64,000 nt of DNA from positions 1 through 64,000 of the forward strand of contig JBEWZL010000003.1 of NCBI GenBank assembly GCA_045837725.1, given 5' to 3'. The stretch comes from Vermamoeba vermiformis (taxonomy: Eukaryota). The position numbers were made by a program, and so were the translations under genes. The notes beneath the pieces were generated by a model, which ran no database searches, had not been told where the DNA came from, and saw only the letters and a program-made list of their open reading frames with translations. Positions 1-59,617 of the stretch are shown here, piece after piece (position 1 is the first letter of the stretch; every line of letters starts with the position of its first letter).

Positions 1-1283
1 ATATATGTACGTAGCTATGCCAAACCATATATTCTTATAAACCGTTCATTATTAGGCTCAAATAACGGCTGATCAGTGTCTAGCTGCATATCGCCAAAAC
101 CCGAAATGGAAAGGCGGTGAACCGCACCTTGAGTGGATTAAAACACTAAAGATCAAAGGGACATTCACGGAACAGCAATACAAGAACGCCGCCGGGCACG
201 TAAGTTTAAATTCTTGGAATCTAGATCGACTACTCATTATTCTATTGCTTCAGGTAGCAGCCACATGGAGGCGTTACCGTAATAGCAACAAGACAGTCAT
301 CATTCAAGCCGCTTACAGCGATATATGGGGTACTGATGAGTTTCCTGTTGCAATAACGGATCGAAATCTGGAGCCGTTTTTCAACTCCGAGTCTGGTGCT
401 GCTCAGCTCCAACGATGGATCCTAAAGAAGCTAATGAAGATTAGCGACAGTAATTTGAGCATAACGACACCGCCGGCTCTTTACGTAGCGTGGATCAGGC
501 AAAAATTCATCAAACTTCGCAGTGAGTCCAAAACGGTTATTAGCAATACTTTATTAATATATGATAGGGAGATTCAAGGACCAAAAGGAGATGTACGCTG
601 AATTGCGACCGAAGATGAAGGAGCTAGAAGGGCAACGCGCCGAACAAGAGCTGCTGCGGGATTTCAAGGGATCTTTGGAAAAAGAAGAAGAGGAGAGAGT
701 ACCGAACAACAACAATGGTAAGAAGAGTCCCAAGGCTGGCAAAAGAAAACGAGACTTGGTCAACAAGAAGATCCGAGATGAACTTGACGAAGAGGAAGAT
801 CTTACGCCCAAGAAGTCGACATCGCGAAAGAAGGCAAAGTCTACAAAGGCGAAAGAAGGCCAGTCTCCTGAAAAGCCACTGAAGACAAGCAAGAAAACAA
901 AGAAATCGACAAAGACGACAGAAGACGCGCCTCTCCTTGTTCAACTACTCGGATCCGACAAGTCAGATACTTCAACAACTGAGAAGCCCACCGACGAAGC
1001 AGCGCCTGTTAAGAAAACCATCAACAAGCCCAAAGCTGTGCCGCCTCAACAAGCGAAGCCCGTGGCAACGAAAAATCAGGACGACGACCACGACTTGGAC
1101 TTTACTTTTGCGTTCTCGATGCCTTCATCGCCAAAGGTCAACAAAAGAACCAAGAAACAAGCGGAAGAGAAGGAGAAGAGGGGTGTAGAAGAGAACGTGG
1201 AGCCTCAGGCGACGGCTCGAGCGACAAGATCCCAGAGTGCGCCCGTTACGAGCAACGATAAATCCAAAAAGAGTAAGTATTAA
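1..1283 (+). CDS. 5'-partial spliced gene of unknown function with a Lys/Glu-rich low-complexity C-terminus; possibly an accessory gene of a DNA transposon
   Basis: Exons ~57-199, 254-521 and 568-1283 join in frame through GT-AG introns (ORFs 245..601 and 561..1283). No recognisable domain. Confidence 0.55.
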
Positions 1284-1620
1284 TAATAGTGTACTTATTT
1301 TATTATTATTCTAACACTATTTTATCGAGGAACTGCTCGCGATGCCAGCTTGAGCGAATCTACTTCAAACGCGCAAAAGAAAAAACAGAAATCGGTAAGT
1401 CCCTTCATAAACCGTTATTTTATTTCATTTTATTAATTCTATTACTTTTACACTATAGACCTCTCCGTAGTTGCCATCGTGGATGCGAGTTCAGGACTTT
1501 GCGATTTTCTTCGTCGCGCAAAGTCCTGAACTCGTGGAGGCTCATTGAAACGAGAAGAATGGTAGAGAGAAGAGAACGTGTAAAAACACTTGTACAAAAA
1601 ACAGTAAAACTACTCTTACC

Positions 1621-1732
1621 GAAAACGGCGTTTTTTCTCTTTCGCGTTTTGTTCCGTTCAAAATCGGGGTCCGAGTGAAATTGTTTTAGGTCAAAAACGG
1701 TGTTTTTACCCCCTTTTACCTTTACTCTAGTG
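1621..1732. mobile_element. Possible right terminus of a CACTA/EnSpm-like DNA transposon
   Basis: Ends in ...TACTCTAGTG (reverse complement CACTAGAGTAAA). Two similar quasi-palindromic subterminal motifs AAAACGGYGTTTTT lie at ~1622 and ~1694. The other end would be outside the window. Confidence 0.3.
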
Positions 1733-1984
1733 CAGTCAGTCCTCTTCTTCATCGTTTTCTTCCTCATCTTCTTCGTCTCTTGCTCTCTGTCCTCTTCTGG
1801 CATCAATGGCAGCAGCTTGTGCATGATTCTGGTGCATAATAAAAATTAATAGAACGAACTTGCTACCACTACGCACACGCCTCGGGGGGTGAAAGCGCCA
1901 CGCGCCAGGGCTTTAATTGAGCAGGTACAACGCCGCTGAGGTCGCTAGTGCCAGAGACGAACATCTGGACCACCGTTAGCACTT

Positions 1985-2986
1985 CTAACGCGGAAAAAAC
2001 TGCACAAACTCGCGTGTGCCAACAACATACCGCTCCAGAAACTCGGAGTCGCAGAGCTTAGAGGCCACCGCTAGTGGCACCTCTGACTTCTGCTGCACAG
2101 AGAACGTGACATAACGCTGGTAAGCATCGGAGACCCAGTCTCCTTGCAGCTTCACCATCGTTTCGTCACAACCTGCAATGAAAGCGCAAGTAGCGCCTCC
2201 TTTGCGCAGAGAGTGGCCCGAGTACTTTGACGGGTCGAGGCCCACGAGAGCGCAGAAGTGCTTGATCAACTTGCTGAAGCGTGAGCGAAGCAGGGGCACC
2301 GTACGGCCTTTGGAGTCCACGTAGACGAAGATAGATGGAGAAGCGCCAGGCGGGGCGAGCTCCCACATGTCATGTAGTGCAGCTAACGGGCACATGGCGT
2401 GGCCCTTCACTGAACGAACCGGGATGAGTAGCGACCTTTCGAACTGTACTGTTTTCGTGCGCGACAGCGTGATGTGGTAGCCTTCTGGTGACACGTTGGT
2501 GATGCTCGTAACGGCCACGTGCTGCCCAGGAACGAAGGCCTTTGCCGAGGTCAACAGCAAGTTGCTGCCGCGGAGGAAAGTCCAGAAACCGATGCAGAGG
2601 GCTGCCCAGAACGTGCGATGCAACGAGGAGGCCCAATTCAGGCGGCCACGGATCGCCATCAGTTCAACTGGAGTTAGTGGGGCCTTCGACATAGGCCTGT
2701 ATTGTTGATAACGACGTACACCTGCCATAGTTGACGACACCAAATGTCTGTCCACTTGCGTAGTCACGGGGTCTGGGTGCCGTGCTGCCAAGTGAAACTG
2801 GCGTATATGAACCAAGTACGTGGTGATAGAACCAGCCTTGACGCCCGACGAGGCCAACCAGGCGGCGTACTCGCACAGGACGTCGGAGTTCGTGGGGCAG
2901 AACGAGAGCTTGTAGTAGATGCAGAAGCGAGCGAAGGCTCTGACTGCGTTGTCTCTGCCTGCAGAGGTCGACTCTGCCAGGCTCAT
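1985..2986 (-). CDS. Tyrosine recombinase (integrase) of the retrotransposon
   Basis: FWTFLRGSN (catalytic R), RTKT (K), GHSLRKGGAT (HxxR), QGDWVSDAYQRY (W and catalytic Y). Confidence 0.95.
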   Translation of the reverse strand: MSLAESTSAGRDNAVRAFARFCIYYKLSFCPTNSDVLCEYAAWLASSGVKAGSITTYLVHIRQFHLAARHPDPVTTQVDRHLVSSTMAGVRRYQQYRPMSKAPLTPVELMAIRGRLNWASSLHRTFWAALCIGFWTFLRGSNLLLTSAKAFVPGQHVAVTSITNVSPEGYHITLSRTKTVQFERSLLIPVRSVKGHAMCPLAALHDMWELAPPGASPSIFVYVDSKGRTVPLLRSRFSKLIKHFCALVGLDPSKYSGHSLRKGGATCAFIAGCDETMVKLQGDWVSDAYQRYVTFSVQQKSEVPLAVASKLCDSEFLERYVVGTREFVQFFPR

Positions 2987-4683
2987 AGCGCGAAACTCTG
3001 CGGCTCTAATGATGCAACGTTGATGACAGGTGCATGGACCATCATAAGGTTATTATCTAGTTCAAGCATTTCGGCAATGTGCCCGCGTGAGCCTGCATCC
3101 GCTAACCTGTTGGTGACACCGCTGATGTGTCTGGCGGTGATATGAAAGTTGTGGAGAGCTGACAACCAAAAGAGGTCGCGTAGCATCGCCATAATACGGC
3201 GAGAGGGCAACGAGCCCTTGTTGATTGCAGAGACTGTAGCCATGTTGTCTGATTCGACCAAGAGGTGCTTGTTTGCCCACTCGGAGCCCCATCGCTTAGC
3301 AGCCAGGTAGACCGATAGGCACTCTGTCTCGTTGATGTGCCAACCCGCGGTGAGCTGGCAGTGGGGCTGCACGAAGAACTGTTGATCAAAGACTGCACAG
3401 CAGCCCCAGTTGGAGGCATCGGTGACGAAGTGTTGCTCCCCAATAGGCGTAGGGTCGATCATGATAGCCTTGCCATTCCACTGCGACGAGAAACGCAGCC
3501 ACCAATCAATATCGGCTCTGAATTCATCAGTCAAGGTGACCACATCATCATGGTCCTCGTATTCGTTAATTAAATCAATCATACGCCGGAGGAAGGTCCT
3601 GCCACCCTTCACCACCTTCGCTGCGAAGTTGAGCTTGCCGATGAGGCGCTCAACCTCGCGCTTTGTCGCCGTAGTGCGGTCCATGAAGACTTGGAGCAGC
3701 TCGAGGATCTTATGGAGCTTTCCTTCTGGCAACGACAGCTGACGCTCTGCGATGTTGATACGAATGCCCAGAAAAACCAAGTCACGGCACGGTGGCACCA
3801 CCTTATTCTCAGCAATGGGCCAGCCCATGTCTGTCAAGCACGCTCTGAACTGCTCGTGGTCGAGAACCGCGTTGTCCATCGCTTCCTCGAGAGTGACTCC
3901 ACTCGAGAGGACCAGGAAGTCATCGATGTAGGGCTCAGAATGCTCTACGTCGTAGCTGTTCACGGCCGTGCGCGCAATGTAGTTCGAAATGCGCCAGAAC
4001 ACCCACGGGGCTAAAGCCAGGCCAAAGCACATACGGAGGTCCACGTAATAGTGGCCATCCCACCAGAAACCAAACAGGTGCCAGTGGTCTGGGTTAATCG
4101 GGACGTGCCTGAAAGCAGCCTTAATATCGAACTTACTCGCCACGACGTATTTGGGGCCACATTTGAAGATAAACTTGACGGCGTCGTCAACAGAAGAGAA
4201 GTGGAACTTGGTGGGGTGTTTCGTGAACTCGTTGAGGTTGCCCACCTTGGGACGACTGAGGTCAGTGATACGGCGCCACTTGCCATCGCCTTTCTCCACC
4301 GCACCCAACGCGTTGACCTTGTATGGGTGGCAGGGGACTCGCGCAATGTAGCCATTCTCTAGCTCGCTGCAAATGTCTTCGTCGATTGCATTCCAGCAAT
4401 TTTGCACGCTACTGTAGTTGGCCAAATGAGTAGACGGTACTGTGACACCTGGGCCAACCACTGAAAGACCCCCGCCCGGTGCGAAGAGCTCTCTCATAAA
4501 GGCGCCATCCTCGTCCTTGTAAGAGAGCCCTGACCAGACAGGGTACTTCAGGGTCACAGCACTGGGTCGGGGGGTTACTTTGCCACTAAGTGAGCCCCCC
4601 CACTGGCGTTTGGGGACGGCCCAAAGACGATCAGCGGCTCGCCGGGGTGGCCTTGCGCCATATGGTGATCGGGGCTGTTGCAC
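2983..4683 (-). CDS. Reverse transcriptase-RNase H (pol), no obvious methyltransferase domain
   Basis: KWRRITDLS, KFDIKAAFRHVP, MCFGLALAP, YIDDFL; RNase H motifs VTDAS, HINETE, SDN, NRLADAGSR. The ORF begins at GTG and overlaps gag. Confidence 0.95.
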   Translation of the reverse strand: MQQPRSPYGARPPRRAADRLWAVPKRQWGGSLSGKVTPRPSAVTLKYPVWSGLSYKDEDGAFMRELFAPGGGLSVVGPGVTVPSTHLANYSSVQNCWNAIDEDICSELENGYIARVPCHPYKVNALGAVEKGDGKWRRITDLSRPKVGNLNEFTKHPTKFHFSSVDDAVKFIFKCGPKYVVASKFDIKAAFRHVPINPDHWHLFGFWWDGHYYVDLRMCFGLALAPWVFWRISNYIARTAVNSYDVEHSEPYIDDFLVLSSGVTLEEAMDNAVLDHEQFRACLTDMGWPIAENKVVPPCRDLVFLGIRINIAERQLSLPEGKLHKILELLQVFMDRTTATKREVERLIGKLNFAAKVVKGGRTFLRRMIDLINEYEDHDDVVTLTDEFRADIDWWLRFSSQWNGKAIMIDPTPIGEQHFVTDASNWGCCAVFDQQFFVQPHCQLTAGWHINETECLSVYLAAKRWGSEWANKHLLVESDNMATVSAINKGSLPSRRIMAMLRDLFWLSALHNFHITARHISGVTNRLADAGSRGHIAEMLELDNNLMMVHAPVINVASLEPQSFAL

Positions 4684-6128
4684 TTCGCACAGACATGCTT
4701 GTACTTGCAGCCATCATGACGACGAGTGTGTGGGCAGTTACCGTCTGCGTTCCACTTGTTGCACGGGTTCTCCGACTTGGTGCGTGCCTTTCTCACGGTG
4801 GCTCCGGTCTCTGTCTTATAACTGTAAGAATCGGGGAGCCGTGGATGCAGCTTAAAGCGCTCCAGCGGACACCCAGTCGTTCTCCAATTGTACAAACCCA
4901 TTTCAACGCCAGCTCTGAACTCTTCGTCAAAGTCCATGATGCTAAGCCAGGTGTGGGCCTCAGACAAGCCATTGATGTACGACAGGTACTCGATGTAGTC
5001 AGCGATGTTGAAAGCCGGGTTCTCTGACTGCAGAAGTTTCATAATCTTGAAGGCAGCCCCGGTGTACTCCAGGTGGCTAGCTGGGATCTTGCCTTTGGAG
5101 GAGCCTTCCGTAAAGTAACGTGGGAGGTAGACAGTCCTGGGGTTTGTGGGGTCTGCGAGGGGCACAGCCACAGCCAGAGGAACAGCCTTTGGAGGAGCGT
5201 AGGTAAGGTGCGCTAGTGGGGCCGTGCAATAGCGTTGGGGCTGTGGTGACTGCGCAGAGGGCGTCACCGGTCCTGGCGAGGGGGCTTGCAAGCCAGCTGA
5301 CTGGGTGCCCACCGAAGGGGCGCCAACAGTATGTGGGGCCAAGGCCGAAACTGGAGGAGTTGTAAACTGGGGAGGCGACGTTGCAGGTATGACAGTTTGG
5401 GCCGCAGGTGTGCCCTCTGTCTGTGCCAAGCTCTGAGGAGGAGTTGAAGACTGTGCAGAGTTGGCCTCCTTGACCTTGTGCATCAACGAGTCTGCTGCTG
5501 ATGAGAGATCCTCGTTGGCAGCGAGGTCCTTCGGGGTGGGCTGAGACGTCGAGCCAGGGTCACCTTGCATGCCCGTGGGGCGCGGCTTAACCTTGTAGGG
5601 CGTAGTCGCGAGGAGCCCCAAAGCGTTGGTGAAGGACTCGTAGAACTGAGGGTCGTTCTGTCGAAGAGACTGGAGGCGCGACGGATCAAGCGTGACGTTA
5701 TCCAGTTTCTGATTGAGTTTTCGAACAGCACGTACCGGTTGGACTCCTGCGTCCATAAGGGGGGCCACAATCGTCTTCAGTTCAGTGAGAAAGCCACGCT
5801 CCCGGAAAGAGTTCGCCAGGGAAGATTCCCAATCTTGGATCTCCAAGAAAATAGCAACTTTCTCGGGATCAGAGGGCGCCGTTGAGCCTTGCAGAATCGA
5901 ATCATCGATGACCACTGAGGCTAAAGCTAGGATCAGAAGTTTTCGGATCTCGGCAGGGTGCTTATTAGCGGTGATTTCCCGCCACTTCGCGATCAGCGAA
6001 AAACTCGCCAGGTTCGCAGAGGAGGCGTGATTAGCATCGCCAATAATCGTTTCAAGCGACTCGAAGTCAGAAGCCGCTTTCTTTGCTTGTTTCTTCTCTT
6101 TTCTCGACGTCATGAATAGATTTGACAA
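4575..6128 (-). CDS. Gag-like ORF1 of the retrotransposon
   Basis: Lies upstream of pol. Pro-rich centre, the segment WLSIMDFDEEFR and a C-terminal Cys/His finger CNKWN...C...CKYKHVCAKCNSPDHH, as in YR-retroelement Gags. Confidence 0.85.
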   Translation of the reverse strand: MSNLFMTSRKEKKQAKKAASDFESLETIIGDANHASSANLASFSLIAKWREITANKHPAEIRKLLILALASVVIDDSILQGSTAPSDPEKVAIFLEIQDWESSLANSFRERGFLTELKTIVAPLMDAGVQPVRAVRKLNQKLDNVTLDPSRLQSLRQNDPQFYESFTNALGLLATTPYKVKPRPTGMQGDPGSTSQPTPKDLAANEDLSSAADSLMHKVKEANSAQSSTPPQSLAQTEGTPAAQTVIPATSPPQFTTPPVSALAPHTVGAPSVGTQSAGLQAPSPGPVTPSAQSPQPQRYCTAPLAHLTYAPPKAVPLAVAVPLADPTNPRTVYLPRYFTEGSSKGKIPASHLEYTGAAFKIMKLLQSENPAFNIADYIEYLSYINGLSEAHTWLSIMDFDEEFRAGVEMGLYNWRTTGCPLERFKLHPRLPDSYSYKTETGATVRKARTKSENPCNKWNADGNCPHTRRHDGCKYKHVCAKCNSPDHHMAQGHPGEPLIVFGPSPNASGGAHLVAK

Positions 6129-6379
6129 TTCGAAAATCCAATGACAAAATTAAACAGAACACAAATAAGACTAAGGCAGAAAAAATAAATACGTATTAAC
6201 AAGCTGTTGTGTTAGCTCGTTGTTTAGCGTTCTGACACTTTAACCATTTTTGGCAATTGCCCAAATCTCACGCCTCAATCGCGTGACCATCAACCAGGGC
6301 TTACTTTTGGCCAAAGCGCTCGGCTGTAGCTGCGCTCGCCAGTTCCGGTGGCTAATTGCATGGCAATGTGGCGCCATAA

Positions 6380-6960
6380 ATTTTCAATCTGGTTCTGCTC
6401 AACCTCACAATCTGCAAAGTGTTTCTCAGGGCTATTGACACTGCCTGGTTCACATCAAACCACATGGCTACTATAATTACCAATGGTTCATCCAGGTAAT
6501 GTCCAAGAGCACCAGCAGATCAATCAGAGCAAATCCTTTGGAGATGCCACATGACATACAGTGCAATCATTAAAGAAGCAGAAGAAGAGTAGGACTGTTT
6601 TGTCCAATGTACAGAATATTGTTAGCTCCAATAACTTTATTACATTTTTAGCAAATTTAAATTTGGATTGACAAAAGCAGGTATGAAAATTGCTCTGTTG
6701 GACAATGCTTCACCCCAGCTCTAACCCCCAAAAAAGCTGCTCCTTCTAGTTGGACTGAAAGGAGAGAAAATGAGATCAGGGCTAATCCACTTGGAGTTGG
6801 TTGGTTTAGGTGGAATGGAAGAATTCTGCAGGTGTTGTTCAATGGCCATTTCAATTCAATGTTTATAGCTAACAGAAATTAGGGCTCAATTATGTTCAGC
6901 AGGTCAGAGGAAGTGGTTGGCACTTTGCTTCAGCAGGTGACACATACAAGTTAGGTCAGT
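6380..6960 (-). pseudogene. CpG-erased degenerate sequence, probably an old TE or gene relic whose other half lies at 1733-1834
   Basis: No CG dinucleotide from 6375 to 7018. Joining the flanks across CATAA gives a frame whose four nearest stops are all TGA. Confidence 0.4.
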
Positions 6961-6976
6961 TCAAACAATCACATAT

Positions 6977-9665
6977 TTATTGCAAGTTAATCAACACAAC
7001 AAAATTTGAAGCCAAAGTCGTTTGTGATTCTATCACAAGAAAACTGGACACCCACTTAAAAGACACTGCCTCTCCATTGACAGTAACAGACACTATTTGC
7101 ATGCCAGCAAGCCCAGCAACTTTAACCTCAGAAAGAGTTAAATTTGCTTCATTGTAACCAGAGTTTAGCACATTTGATGCTATCTTCACTGACTGACCAT
7201 TGCTAACAGCTTCAAATGTCATGTAACTGTAGTTGCTACCAATAAATCTAACAATGCTTTCACCATCATCTAAATATAGCTCTCCCACTGCAGATCGATT
7301 GTCATCCAAAGATACTGTCAAACTAAAGGGATTCATTCTGGAAGCTACTGTAGTCAAACCAGGCTGCTGAGTAGGTAAAATATATCCTCCACGCAAGTGC
7401 ATATTGAGGTACTCCAGTGGGGCTTCCAATGTTTGAGTGCCAGGAGATAGCTCAGAGCCATCATAGTAGTTGTACCATCGAGCATGAGGAAAGTAACCAA
7501 CAACTGAAGTGGCATTCTCTTCATACACAGGAGTAATTAACAAACCACTGCCTATCAACATTTGGTGGTCAATTGTCCACGTAGTTGAATCGCTTGGGAA
7601 CTCAAACATTAAAGGACGAGCAACAGGATAGCCCTAGCTTAAGGTTGAGCAAATGATCGAGGTATTGCAAGTTCGACTTACCTTTTGACTTGCAGAGTAA
7701 AACAGTGTGTAGTAATAAGGCAATAACGAGTAGCGAATCATCATTGAGTTAATCATAATCTTTTCATATTCTGGACCGAATGCAAAGGGCTCTTGACCGT
7801 GAGGTGACGCGTTGTGGTTGCGACAGAACGGAAAGAATGCACCGAACTGCATCCAGCGCGTGCACAATTGGCTCGTTGCGTTACCCAAAAATCCGCAGAT
7901 ATCGGGACCAACCATTGGAATGCCAAAGAACGAGAACGACAAAACTCCAGGAATACTCGCGCTCAAGTCGTGCCACGTGCTAAAGTTATCTCCAAGCCAA
8001 TGAGCAGCGTAGCGGCCTGAGCCAGGGAATGTAGAACGAGAGAGCACAAAACTGCGCTGTCCACGAACAGCTTCCATTGCCAACTGTGATGCACGAGCTT
8101 GGAAATAGCCGAACATATTGTGCAGGTAGTAAAGACGACCGTAATTCATCACCGCGCTCATATTGAATGTGCCTTCGTTGACGTTAGCGACAGTTGAAGG
8201 TATCCATGGTGGATTGTGCAGGCTGTATTGTTGCGCAGAGCCCACCTCGAGCTTGGAGTTTTGTGGGGGAGTGCCGCATTGACCGGTGCACGTGATGGTT
8301 GGTTCGTTCATGTCGATCCAGAGACCGTCAATGGGGACCTTCTCGTGCATTACTTTGACATTGTTCGCCCACCAGTACGTTGTATTAAGATTAGTGAAGT
8401 CCGGGAAGTAGCTGACGTAATCGGCCCACAGAGTCGCGGGCAGGTAAGCAGTGCGTTCAGGATTCCAAATGAAAACGTTGTTCTGCATACCAGTAGTGTA
8501 CGGGAAGTAGTTGTTGTCGATTTTAATGTTGTGATCGACAATTACTACGTAGCGGGCGCCATCGTTGTGTAGCTCGTCAACAAACGCGCGGATCTGTTTT
8601 TCAGGGAAGCGTTCCGGATCGAAAACCCAACTTTGAGCACCGTACATGTAGTCCAAGTCATTCCACCTGCAATTGAATATTAGTGAGGTTCATATGAATA
8701 AAAACTACATACATAGTCTCAACTGGGAATCCCGTTTCTTTCAATCGAGTGTAAATTTCACGTGTTCTGTTAACTGTCTGCCAATCACCATCACTCCAGC
8801 TAATGCGCGATTGATGATAACCGAGGGACCAATACGGAGGAAGAAATGGTTTGCTAATCAGGTCCGTGTACTGCTCAACGACATTTAACGGTGTTGAGCC
8901 CATGAAGAAGTAGAAATCGAACAAACCGCCCATAGTCTGGTACTTAATAGAGCCCGGGTTGATCGTCACATCCATTCCATTCGCGTTCAACAAGAAGACG
9001 CCGTGCATTCGACCTTCTCGCATTTCGTAGTAGACAGCGTGAGAGCCGTACAAGCCATAGTATTCTTGAGTGCCTGCGTCTCTGTTCCACATCGTGTATG
9101 TTTTTGAGATCGGCAAACGAAGCGGATAAACGCGTTCACCAAGACCGTAAATGTACGGATCTTCAGGCAAAACAGAATGTAGTTCCAAATACTGATCTTC
9201 AAATATGAGACCGTTGAATGAATTTTGAGTCAACGAGGGCGTTGTATTGAACAGAACGGCCCCATCGCTTATGCGTTGTACCGCGAATCCAAAAGGGTAC
9301 GTTGTGTAAGAGAACCTGTAATTCGGATTTTGAACGGGCTTATTTTGACCCACAATGACGTCTGGTACTTCCCATCTAATTATAAGTGATATTAGAATAT
9401 ACGATATTTTTTTTTGAATTTTTTACCGATCAGATCGTCCAATCTTAACGCGAAGTCTCTCATCCGTTTGGTATTCCACTAATAAATCCAAAGTGTCCAA
9501 ATCTTCTCCATAAGGGCCCTTACTTCCGTCTATACGCTGCAAGGTACCCGTTAGACCGTTGTCGATCCCTTGTATGCTAGTGAGTTGGTAACCAGGAACG
9601 AAGTCTTGGGCCCAACAAGCACCTAGCAAAAATATCAGAAAGAGGAGCGAAGTTGCGTGCTTCAT
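6977..9665 (-). CDS. Secreted/lysosomal alpha-glucosidase, glycoside hydrolase family 31
   Basis: Signal peptide MKHATSLLFLIFLLGACWA; DGLWIDMNEP nucleophile motif, HWLGDN, GPDICGF, RWMQFGAFFPFCRNHN; 4 or more exons. Confidence 0.95.
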
Positions 9666-9744: not shown

Positions 9745-11966
9745 TTACTTCTTGCCAATCTTGACAAATCGCAGGAAAATGTAGCCCAGGATGAAATAAA
9801 AGATGAGCATGCCAATTAAAATCAGAAATTCGTGCCATAGGACCACGTTGTACATGCCCATAAACGCCAAGACTTGCTCGCCCGTAGCGAAGGGACACTT
9901 GGAAGGATCGTTAGGGCAAGAGTACTCGACACCTTGATATTGATTGGCAGATACAATTCGGAATGCGTATCTGTAGGGCGACAAATACTGGATGAAACTT
10001 AACCACTTCGGAATGTTCGCATCCGACAAAAAGAAGCCACCAAACGACAAAAACAGTAGCATCTATGTAAATAAATATTAGATATGCTAATAGCGAGGGT
10101 GTCTACGTACCAAAACAGAAATCAAAAGGTTAGCCATGACGATGTCGGGGAACAGATACGCGCACGTGAGTGAAATGAACTTCCAAATGAGCAGCGATAA
10201 GTACAGCGCGCAGATAAAGATGAAAAACCTGAACACGCGTTAGTTCCGATCGATGGCTGTGTGTGCTTACCTTCCAGCGTCAGGCGTGAAGCCAATCATC
10301 CAGTACGTGACCGTGGAGAACACGCACACGTACAGCAATTGAATCGGCAAATCGACCAGCGTGTTAGCTACATAATAGGGGAACACGCGATACATCTTCA
10401 CTGCACGTTCTTTGTTGATTATAATTCGTTCCTTTGGTACTGTTGAACGTAAATTAGACACGTGTCTTCAAAGGTAAACTTGAATCGTACGTACCCGTGC
10501 TTCCTGCTGTAAACGCCACGGTGAAGCTGCCTTGCAACATGACATAAAACAACGCTGCATTGACGTCATAAACAGCGTCCGTACGCGTGCCAAGTTGTAA
10601 GTACAACAGGCCCAAGAAAATTGACACGAACAAGTGCTGCGCGCCTTCACCGATCAATCTCATGCGATTTCTGATTGCATCGTGCCACGTCCTGCTAGCT
10701 ACAACGCGTGACTGATAGGCTGGCTCCGTTGCGTACGAAGAATTCGTAAACTGCGCGGCATCTTTGGTGGGCTCGATTGGAATCAACACTTCAGCACCAC
10801 CTGGAGGGAATAAGAGTCAGTTTCTACGAACAATATCGCAATGCTGCGTACTTGGTCTCGTCTCGGTCGGTGACGAGGTGGCAGTGTTTGTAGCTGCGTC
10901 AGTCAAGTACTTGTGATACTTGGACTTGCGGTACTCTTCAGTGATTTCATCGGGTGTTTTGGCGTCAGAGGACATCGTGCCAATGAACTTCCCTGAGGCC
11001 ACGTCCACTAGTAATAAGTGTTAATATCGAGACTAATCGGCGATATTAATGACTGAACGTACAAATGTAATCAGCAATGTTGTCGAATTGTTCTCGCTCG
11101 TATCCCATGCGTTGAAAGAACTTTGCGATGGGCTTAGGCGGTCCATAATACATCAAGCGTCCATTTTGTAACAGCGTCACTTTGTCGAACGAGGTGAAAA
11201 TGCTCGCACGAGGCTGATGGATCGTGCAGATAATCGTGCGACCGCTTTGTGCTAATTGTTTCAATAAATTTACGACTTGATAAGCGCTGCTTGAATCAAG
11301 ACCTGAGGTGGGTTCGTCCAAAAACAGCAAGCCTATTTTACGGATTAGTTTTCTCGCGTTTTGGAATTTCCTGTATTTAAACTTGACTTACTTGGCCGAG
11401 TTACAAGTTCTATACCAATGGACGTTCTTTTTCGTTCGCCACCTGAAATACCACGCTTGTTCGGATCACCAATGCGCGTATCTTGACACTTCTCGAGACC
11501 TAGCGTGCGGATCACTTCATCAACCTGCAACAAATTCGAAATTCATTCTTTAAATATTATAATTACTTACTCTTTCTGCCTTTTCTGATTCCGACATTTT
11601 TTGCGGTAATCGAAGCAGTGCTGAAAACATGATAGATTCGCGCACTGTCGCTGTTTCAAACAATATATCGTCTTGCTCTACGAATCCAATGTGCTGTCTA
11701 TAATCTCTTATATTTACTGGAGCTGAATTGACGAGAATTGAGCCTGTCAGTTCTGTTGATCGGCTGATCCTGCCACTCAAAGCGCTCAGAAGAGTTGTTT
11801 TGCCGGCACCAGAAGGACCCATAATGGCTATTAGCTCCCCAGGATTTGCTACGAAATCGACAGCATCCAAAAGCAGGCGCGCATCTCGCTTCTTCGTTTT
11901 TTTGAGTTGACACGATACCTGCTGAGCTCGTAATTGTATTTTGAATTCGTTTGCTTCCGAATTCAT
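9745..11966 (-). CDS. ABCG (White-type) half transporter
   Basis: Walker [18 protein letters not shown] signature, [16 protein letters not shown], followed by transmembrane exons. Confidence 0.95.
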
Positions 11967-57416: not shown

Positions 57417-58862
57417 TTAGTCGACTTCTTCGACGGTGGGGCCAGAAGAGCGAGGAGCACCACCAGGGGCACCACCCATGCCACCCATACCGCCCATGCC
57501 GCCCATACCGCCGGGCATGCCACCGGGCATACCTCCAGGCATACCTCCGGGCATACCACCAGGGGCACCACCGGCTTGTTGGTACATCTTGGTGAAGATG
57601 GGGTTAACCAAGTCTTGCAACTCCTTCTCCTTGGCTTCGAATTCGGACTTAGCAGCCTCGGGGTTAGACTCGATCCAGGCCAAAGCTTCTTCGGAGGCCT
57701 TCTCGACGGTCTTCTTGTCTTCTTCGGAGATCTTGTCCTTGACGCCATCTTCGCGAACAGTGTTGCGGATGGAGAAGGCGAAGTTCTCGAGCTTGTTCTT
57801 GGCTTCGATTCTTTCCTTGGCAATGTTGTCTTGTTCCTTGAACTCATCGGCTTGCTTAACCATGCGCTCGATGTCTTCCTTGGAGAGACGACCCTTGTCG
57901 TTGGTGATGGTAATCTTGGAGGTCTTACCAGTTGACTTCTCAATGGCAGAGACGTTCAAGATACCGTTGGCGTCAATGTCGTAAGAGACTTCGATTTGAG
58001 GAGTACCACGAGGAGCGGGGGGAATACCAGTCAAGTCGAACTTGCCCAACAAGTGGTTGTCCTTAGTGAGAGGGCGCTCACCTTCGAAGACCTTGATGGA
58101 GACGGCGGGTTGGTAGTCGCTGTAGGTAGTGAAGGTTTCCTTCTTGTTGACGGGGATAGTAGTGTTACGAGGAATCAAAACAGTCATGACACCACCAGCG
58201 GTTTCAACACCGAGGGAGAGAGGAGCAACGTCGAGCAAGACGATTTGATCCAATTGCTTGCCCTTCTTGCCGGCCAAAATAGCGGCTTGGACGGCAGCAC
58301 CGTAGGCAACGGCTTCGTCAGGGTTGATGGACTTGTTGAGTTCCTTGCCGTTGAAGAAGTCTTGCAAGAGTTGTTGAACCTTGGGGATACGAGTAGAACC
58401 ACCGACCAAGACAACTTCGTCGACCTTGGACTTGTCGATCTTGGAGTCACGGAGGACTTGTTCGACGGGTTCCAAGCAGGACTTGAAGAGGGCCATGTTC
58501 ATTTCTTCGAAGCGGGCACGAGTGATGCTAGTGTAGAAGTCAACACCTTCGTAGAGAGAGTCGATCTCGATCGAGGCCTGAGTGGAAGAGGACAAAGTTC
58601 TCTTGGCACGCTCGCAAGCAGTTCTCAAACGACGAACAGCCTTGGGGTTACCGCTGATGTCCTTGTTGGTCTTCTTCTTGAATTCGCGGATGAAGAAGTT
58701 AACCATTTGGTTATCAAAGTCTTCACCACCCAAGTGAGTGTTACCACCAGTAGCGCGGACTTCGAAGACACCTTCGTCGAGAGTCAACAAGGTAACGTCG
58801 AAAGTACCACCACCAAGATCGAAGATCAAGATGTTCTTTTCACCGCTAGCAGTCTTGTCCAA

Positions 58863-58895
<33 letters not shown>

Positions 58896-59617
58896 AATAA
58901 TACGGTGAACCTATTAATATTAATGATTAGAGTCAATTCTTATTCTTTGACTAAACGACGAAATGATGACGTAATAGATCGTAAAATATGGGATTTGATC
59001 GAATCAGATTTGAAAGAATTAAAACGGTACCGAATTAGTTAATGAAAATGAAAGAATTTTAAAATTGCTTAATTGAGAATAAAGAGGAGCAAAATAATTA
59101 CCTTGAGACCAGCAATAGTACCGGCATCCTTGGTGGCCAAACGTTGCGAGTCATTGAAGTAAGCAGGAACAGTGACGACGGCGTCCTTGACGGTAGTACC
59201 GACGAAAGCTTCGGCGACTTCCTTCATTTTGACGAGGACCATGGCAGAGATCTCTTCAGGGGCGAAATCCTTGGTCTCTCCCTTAAAGTTGACGCGAATG
59301 TAGGGCTTGTCGCCTTCCTTGGAGACGACGGTGAAGGGCCAGTGCTTCATATCATCTTGGACGGTGTGGTCAGAGAACTTGCGACCGATCAAGCGCTTGG
59401 AGTCGAAGACTGTGTTTTCGGGATTCAAGGCAACTTGAGACTTGGCGGCATCACCAATCAAACGCTCAGTGTCGGTGAAGGCAACGTAGGAAGGAGTAGT
59501 TCTGTTTCCTTGGTCGTTGGGGATAATTTCAACACGATCGTTTTGCCAGATACCAACACAAGAGTAGGTGGTTCCGAGATCGATACCGACGCAGGGCCAG
59601 CCAGCAACTTGAGACAT
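57417..59617 (-). CDS. HSP70: Cytosolic Hsp70 with one intron (~58910-59101)
   Basis: [27 protein letters not shown] repeats, C-terminal GPTVEEVD. Confidence 0.99.

Follow-up and report, generated by a model that had tools for sequence, protein, structure and literature searches.

A CpG-erased zone at the 3' end of a Vermamoeba vermiformis GH31 gene as the probable scar of an old CG-methylated domain

Why should almost every CpG be missing from the 3' end of a functional gene in a genome whose average CpG content shows no depletion? This question is raised by the first 64,000 nucleotides of contig JBEWZL010000003.1 of Vermamoeba vermiformis (assembly GCA_045837725.1; hereafter the window), where a zone at 6375-7579 runs from the edge of a tyrosine-recombinase (YR) retroelement into the last exon of a GH31 (alpha-glucosidase-family) gene. 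Our comparisons with other copies, strains and loci suggest that this zone is probably the scar of an old, small CG-methylated domain that decayed by passive deamination of 5-methylcytosine (5mC), a reading drawn from the DNA sequence.

With the CpG observed/expected ratio (o/e) of the window, 1.12, as expectation, 6375-7579 contains 4 CpGs against 54.5 expected (Poisson P 8e-19), and 6375-7018 contains none against 27.8. The last CG left of the gap starts at 6372 and the following ones at 7019, 7296, 7392, 7479 and 7580, so that the CG-free gap measures 647 bp, compared with 132 bp for the runner-up in the window outside the zone. Zone o/e is 0.08, while TpG and CpA stand at 1.36 and 1.58 (1.14 and 1.12 in 7580-9420). 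The first-pass annotation of this DNA had given the same CG positions, had described CG as abundant elsewhere and inside the retrotransposon (299 CG, o/e 0.89), and had expected a TpG/CpA excess; all of this is borne out, as is its statement that three of the four surviving CGs are GH31 Arg codons (within the zone we count CGA twice, CGT once and AGA twice), the CG at 7019 belonging to a Thr codon, ACG. No tandem repeats or structured RNA were found within the zone, and none of the other gene ends in the window is CpG-depleted. The parts of the locus are as follows.

1..1732, no strand assigned: end of a CACTA-like multicopy DNA element, CpG-rich, with copies at C221 (97.5%), C114 (68-70%), C30 and C124
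1733..1856, no strand assigned: left remnant of the old eroded patch, 124 bp with 3 CG, between two younger elements
1857..6380, minus strand: intact tyrosine-recombinase retroelement (DIRS-order, Ngaro-like), recognised by open reading frames (ORFs), Pfam matches and paralogues; not CpG-erased
4575-6149, minus strand: gag-like ORF of the YR retroelement
2983-4713, minus strand: reverse transcriptase (RT)/RNase H ORF of the YR retroelement
1985-3049, minus strand: tyrosine recombinase ORF
6380..6540, no strand assigned: CpG-erased relic of a low-copy element, with a CpG-intact counterpart at C149:10166-10328
6541..6976, no strand assigned: single-copy CpG-free spacer including the GH31 3' untranslated region
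6977..7579, minus strand: CpG-erased 3' 603 bp of the last GH31 exon (exon 6977-7632)
7580..7800, minus strand: tail of partial CpG loss spanning the last GH31 intron, with 5/18 synonymous sites CpG
6977..9665, minus strand: whole GH31 gene with start ATG and Pfam GH31 domains, four exons (introns ~7633-7680, 8665-8710 and 9376-9426)

As had been proposed, the loss overlaps about 600 bp of a functional gene. The last exon has an open frame and keeps homology to its C-terminus (Glyco_hydro_31_3rd, E 1e-25; 42% identity to a GH31 homologue over residues 1-215), and a contig of a related strain (X4, taken as RNA by guess) skips exactly the three introns, whose plus-strand ends are CT..AC, so that GH31 is spliced in that strain. 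The exon is single-copy in our own-genome search; the C-terminal regions of two GH31 paralogues have normal CpG (o/e 1.04 and 0.84), and a homologue search returned only distant, mainly animal proteins (32-43% identity), with no close orthologue for synonymous comparison. Within the gene itself, synonymous sites capable of forming CpG do so at 1 of 54 positions in the zone and at 91 of 172 upstream (P 1.5e-13). Occupancy then rises to 5/18 in 7580-7800 (against 72/125 farther upstream, P 0.02), 16/36 in 7800-8100 and 18/29 in 8100-8400, and stays at 53-64% past 8100. The right edge is therefore a gradient, CpG loss fading with distance along GH31, and the earlier description of a sharp zone holds for the left edge only, which is sharp because the end of a later insertion sits there.

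Two further observations concern the X4 contig. Its spliced GH31 sequence (depth 27.6) ends at 7371, the remaining erased exon appearing only in contigs of about depth 3 (window 7071-7387); early transcript termination inside the erased patch is possible, contig depth being no measure of RNA level, and RNA run X21 was useless for expression level, with only 25 reads below 95% identity. X4 also departs from the window at 35 of the 984 bases that make up the middle exon (7681-8664) and at 6 of the 665 of the upstream exon (8711-9375), which may reflect recombination.

How the CpGs were lost can be read from sequences that survive in a second copy. The relic at 6380-6540 is 81% identical to C149:10166-10328, and all 14 CpGs of the C149 copy are lost in it (10 to CA, 1 to TG, 2 to AA and 1 gapped) against 14 differences at 134 non-CpG positions; the element has no further copies. 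In the left remnant, 1743-1830 matches C187:11251+, with six of eight aligned CpGs changed (4 TG, 2 CA) and non-CpG divergence of 9/72 (P 0.003), and in a deleted YR-family relic at C163 only one of 29 window CpGs is kept, 10 having become TG and 10 CA. The C221 copy of window 1-1482 (97.5% identical), which adjoins a CpG-depleted patch of its own, has lost 14 of 85 CpGs by transition (6 TG, 8 CA), compared with changes at 4 of 487 non-CpG C/G sites, a 10-fold higher rate at CpG (P 4e-6); in the opposite direction, one such loss is seen in the window copy. In 11 patches totalling 23.9 kb the C/(C+T) ratio before G falls to 0.15 of background, versus 1.05 before C and 1.02 before T, with no CHG or CHH depletion and no 5' base preference among the surviving CpGs; a general strand bias was rejected, since TG and CA counts run both ways over these patches. 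The loss is thus CpG-specific C-to-T decay on both strands with about 10-fold CpG hypermutability. A CG-only, two-strand transition profile is that expected of passive 5mC deamination, and long-term CG methylation with such deamination appears well supported, 5mC itself being what we infer from the footprint.

If CpGs decay at the C221 rate, the exon would by a rough estimate have had to stay methylated for a time equivalent to about 0.12-0.24 non-CpG substitutions per site before only 3.5% of its sites were left. Where contigs of three other runs overlap the zone, they show 0-8 differences per 150-330 bp, mostly too few to restore the usual 5 CpG per 100 bp, and the scar therefore mostly predates the strains: related strains carry the same depleted exon (no contig bridges 6380), and in X4 7371-7579 none of the five listed changes is a CpG-restoring transition, although one transversion creates a CG. 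Restored CpGs are possible in one X8 piece (8 differences). Upstream, in 7580-8570, 10 of the 24 transitions among the strain variants listed touch CpG, against 93 of 297 capable third positions, with no clear excess.

Similar patches recur through the genome. In the 43.3-Mb assembly (309 contigs) we sampled forty 10-kb tiles at round coordinates on 10 large contigs (400 kb, 800 sample windows), and 16 of the 800 (~2%) have o/e <0.5, forming a separate low mode with TpG/CpA of 1.49/1.51 versus 1.12/1.11 in the others. A fixed rule finds 4 patches in the 400 kb, which extrapolates, from large contigs only, to ~0.9 Mb of depleted DNA and ~430 patches (95% range 120-1100). The locus is a new instance of a known process and one of hundreds in this genome. 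Patches contain a chromodomain-bearing transposase-like ORF, a DDE transposase, relics of transposable elements (TEs) and P-loop NTPase genes, and several lie on genes without a recognised TE, namely NTPase genes that are lineage-specific and multicopy and may be selfish in their own right. In one NTPase family three of five copies are depleted (o/e 0.04-0.11) and two are normal (1.18 and 1.25), and the mark is therefore locus-specific; in the erased copies CpG survives over the first 600-800 bp. A convergent gene at C84, SNF2-like by eye, has lost its CpGs over its final 1.4 kb as GH31 has, whereas at C221 a convergent ABC gene is touched over only ~150 bp. A centromere reading of the patches was rejected, there being about one patch per 100 kb.

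As to the NTPase genes themselves, those with nuclease-like parts (L127, L128 and L131 as against L129 and L130; also L093, L065, L066 and L047) are often erased over the body. They match no Pfam family at cut-off, one C-terminal piece has no homologue, and a protein atlas gave fungal clusters (0.92) with recognition under threshold and AAA/NTPase leads. From their NTPase-plus-nuclease layout we take them to be of Crinkler/RHS type. Such a layout has been described for that type (PMC5289972).

Is the neighbouring retroelement part of this history? Its gag, RT/RNase H and tyrosine recombinase ORFs stand in the sequence expected of a DIRS-order element and are conserved with paralogues, with a Pfam match to RVT_1 (E 1e-8) and matches under cut-off to RT_RNaseH (E 1e-4) and Phage_integrase (E 0.013), and the 11 long paralogous RT matches are all stop-free. 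The RT ORF ends soon after RNase H without a methylase match, and no long direct or inverted terminal repeats were found in the element; the Ngaro subgroup lacks the methyltransferase domain and has split direct terminal repeats. Homology to another YR copy stops at 6380, and reads derived from other copies diverge from the window sequence at 6382-6384. On the other side, 1837-1856 matches C149:10145-10164 at 19/20 (elsewhere, in 400 kb of tiles, that 20-mer reaches 16/20 at best), and since both flanks, each of them CpG-eroded, thus meet in the C149 homologue (10145-10164 and from 10166), the YR element was inserted into an older relic. Near-identical copies of a second YR family occur on four contigs (L017, L018, L019 and L020), and for 7 of the 12 long RT matches the contig ends no more than ~4 kb away; these elements are therefore young and likely break the assembly.

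On the reading we prefer, a CG-methylated domain would have formed on dead mobile or selfish DNA, represented by the 6380-6540 relic and the 1733-1856 remnant, with DNMT1 presumably maintaining the mark, and would have extended outward over the last ~600-800 bp of the convergent GH31, fading toward its 5' part. Methylated C would then have turned to T on both strands at ~10 times the background rate until nearly all CpGs were gone, with protein-level selection sparing a few Arg codons. The YR retroelement and the CACTA-like element would have inserted later in or beside the patch, too young or too weakly methylated to have lost CpG. The simplest order would accordingly be the relic, then long methylation and spread into GH31, with the young insertions last. 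Of the mechanism first proposed, the CG methylation and deamination footprint holds (polarised losses, the 10-fold rate, DNMT1), whereas the TE island is probably not its source. Several points weigh against our reading. The case for 5mC as the agent comes from its mutational footprint, none of the 24 sequencing runs listed being marked bisulfite, EM-seq or nanopore; the relic is skewed 10 CA to 1 TG (P 0.012 unadjusted), which passive decay does not predict, the other compared pairs being strand-balanced (TG:CA 6:8, 10:10 and 4:2); the left remnant and the right relic match different loci (C187 and C149), save for the 20-bp AT-rich bridge; and recognisable relic sequence amounts to only 160 bp plus ~110 bp, the spacer 6541-6976 having no second copy in an own-genome DNA search, no nhmmer or tblastn match in the fetched loci and no Rfam match. 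Moreover, the YR element may today carry methylation that has yet to leave a scar, because young TEs of Acanthamoeba are reported as more methylated (Sarre et al. 2025, PMC12344493).

The present YR retroelement might itself have been the methylation centre, the mark spreading from it into GH31: the start of the gap coincides exactly with the 5' terminus of the element, the synonymous sites of the element are slightly depleted (C at NNY followed by G 87/177, versus 310/494 at NNY followed by H), and next to methylated Alu elements the host DNA loses CpG (Zhou et al. 2020, PMC7431005). We nevertheless regard this as improbable. A source old enough to erase its flank should itself be eroded, yet the element keeps 13 CG in the 267-bp 5' non-coding part beside the total gap, and the CACTA-like end keeps its CpGs as well. 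Of 11 known paralogous YR loci, flanks were fetched for ten (six of them short, cut by contig ends): nine have no 500-bp window with o/e <0.6, the tenth (C267) has depleted patches ~1.5 and ~5 kb away, and none has an abutting gap, while the two YR flanks join in the C149 homologue. The near-complete erasure and the 10:1 strand skew in the relic would fit bursts at CpG by a deaminase or by a process like repeat-induced point mutation (RIP), with or without lasting methylation, and for basidiomycete CpG signatures the choice between RIP and methylation is stated as open (PMC5870257). RIP, however, targets duplicated DNA and the GH31 exon is single-copy; the C221 losses are scattered, two-strand, partial and only 10-fold; there is no trinucleotide preference, and by inspection no methylase locus was called RID/DNMT4. 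We hold such bursts to be unlikely to a similar degree.

The GH31 exon might instead belong to a class of gene 3' ends or bodies methylated independently of TEs, as in expressed Cyanophora genes, where some methylation accumulates toward gene ends (PMC12344493). The gap spans almost the whole last exon, the C84 SNF2-like gene is depleted over its last 1.4 kb, and depleted NTPase genes keep CpG at their starts. But 98% of the sampled windows, mainly ordinary genes, are undepleted, the window has no other depleted gene end, the GH31 paralogues are normal, and every depleted host 3' end seen points towards either a relic or an NTPase gene that is itself depleted, which makes this account very unlikely. 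Because the zone is close to the end of a contig and surrounded by repeats, an assembly chimera, DNA of foreign origin or gene conversion by a CpG-poor copy comes to mind, but any of these is hardly credible and already largely refuted: the GH31 reading frame continues across the boundary, contigs from three other runs span 7580 (X4 7371-7632; X8 7569-7739, a short overlap; X10 7541-7784), other contigs cover parts of the zone with 0-8 differences, and no donor copy was found.

A scar of old CG methylation calls for enzymes, and cytosine methyltransferases were indeed among the checks first suggested. A PF00145 profile search of the genome found four loci (C124, C232, C236 and C11). C124 is an intact DNMT1: it aligns, exon after exon, with a 1410-aa protein that carries RFD, BAH and methylase domains, and motif I, GGPPCQG and ENV are seen in it. 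By inspection C232 looks like DNMT2, and C236 (L042:6708-9999, L043:1-1317) has what looks like a DNMT3 catalytic domain, which ends a long candidate gene with an upstream BAH match (E 4e-5); protist DNMT3s are described as having no companion domains (PMC12344493). The C11 gene (~559150-562830; L040:4152-7832) has a BAH domain; its methylase region is interrupted, after motif I and before the catalytic PC motif, by two chromodomains with Pfam support and by what looks, by eye, like a third. A 73-aa piece of it has its best single-domain match, at 47%, in a chromodomain-plus-methylase protein, none being above 50%, and its layout appears chromomethylase (CMT)-like, orthology being read from architecture. 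None of the four loci was recognised by inspection as RID/DNMT4. The Vermamoeba row in a table of Sarre et al. (PMC12344493), with two DNMT1, one DNMT2, no DNMT3 and no CMT, fits this set only in part.

Compared with known systems, the locus resembles Alu methylation centres in that methylated mobile DNA, spread into the flank and C-to-T change over time are involved, with deeper scars at older elements (PMC7431005); unlike at Alu, the loss is almost total, covers coding sequence and does not come from the nearest intact element, and the scars stand out as islands because the genome background is undepleted (o/e ~1.1). In other protists with DNMT1 and DNMT3, directly measured methylomes place CG methylation on repeats and silent genes (PMC12344493), and repressive DNMT1/DNMT3 CG methylomes are described in Acanthamoeba castellanii and Cyanophora paradoxa (PMC12344493; Blais et al. 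2025, PMC12210455). As here, these are CG-only, cover a few percent of the genome (3.4% in Acanthamoeba versus ~2% depleted here) and target repeats and silent, non-conserved genes. Their marks, however, were measured and are richest on young TEs, whereas here we see the mutational record of old ones; no local CpG erasure of host exons is described in the accessible sections of those accounts, and the chromodomain methyltransferase is an addition here. Basidiomycete repeats show CpG-biased decay whose cause was left open (PMC5870257), and this, like RIP, shares with our patches a CpG-biased C-to-T change concentrated on repeats and reaching their neighbours. In Vermamoeba, by contrast, no duplication is needed, loss is gradual and two-stranded, there is no 5' context, and no RID-like gene was recognised. 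RIP can also leak into single-copy neighbours of repeats. With plant CMT the C11 enzyme has in common a BAH domain followed by a C5-methylase whose chromodomain(s) separate motif I from the PC motif; it differs in its number of chromodomains, its non-plant host and the lack of a CHG/CHH footprint.

Given that N6-methyladenine (6mA) and H3K4me3 at gene 5' ends oppose 5mC (PMC12695648), these marks could explain the spared 5' ends. More speculatively, and we think it doubtful, a CMT-like enzyme together with DNMT1 may mark single copies of selfish NTPase-nuclease genes as well as TE relics, spare promoter-proximal DNA and run through the 3' exons of expressed convergent genes. If so, the several hundred islands would be a sequence-only map of past heterochromatin, a plant-like chromomethylase circuit would exist outside plants, and the islands would serve as landing sites for new transposons. 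A literature search, weak because it mostly lacked subscription papers, returned neither CpG-erased islands nor a methylome for such a genome. Because the process is known, the single locus matters little; the islands give an indirect, quantitative sign of CG methylation in a genome whose average o/e would suggest none, and they allow old silenced domains, and the mutational cost to their neighbours, to be mapped and dated from sequence. The leads of most worth are the genome-wide island map and the chromodomain methyltransferase.

Turning to the remaining features, the element at 1-1732 has a terminus that reads CACTAGAG on the minus strand, all five copies end CTCTAGTG before differing flanks, and there is a perfect 18-bp hairpin at 1486-1534. 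CACTA/CMC transposons have a CACTA terminus, subterminal repeats, a transposase and a short target duplication; the element may be of this type, the contig starting inside it, with transposase and other end outside the window. At C163:22001-39500 (L125, L069) a block of >17 kb has CpG o/e mostly of 0.2-0.5 and long intron-poor ORFs for glycosyltransferases, a pyruvyl transferase, a decarboxylase, a PhyH dioxygenase and an ABC transporter; its end is duplicated at C236 (L028) with 1 difference in 3105 bp, and it is possibly an acquired or long-silenced cluster. At C149:14700-17000 (L032:4700-7000) a histone H3-like ORF (Pfam Histone, E 1e-17) lies downstream of a repetitive Lys/Ser-rich ORF and is followed by two short-period tandem arrays and then a CpG-free patch, and at C149:10496 a protein starts MPELPEVE, presumably an Fpg/Nei-like one. 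Finally, at window 57417-59042 a plus-strand NAD-GH Pfam match lies opposite an Hsp70 gene, which we take to be an antisense-frame artefact.

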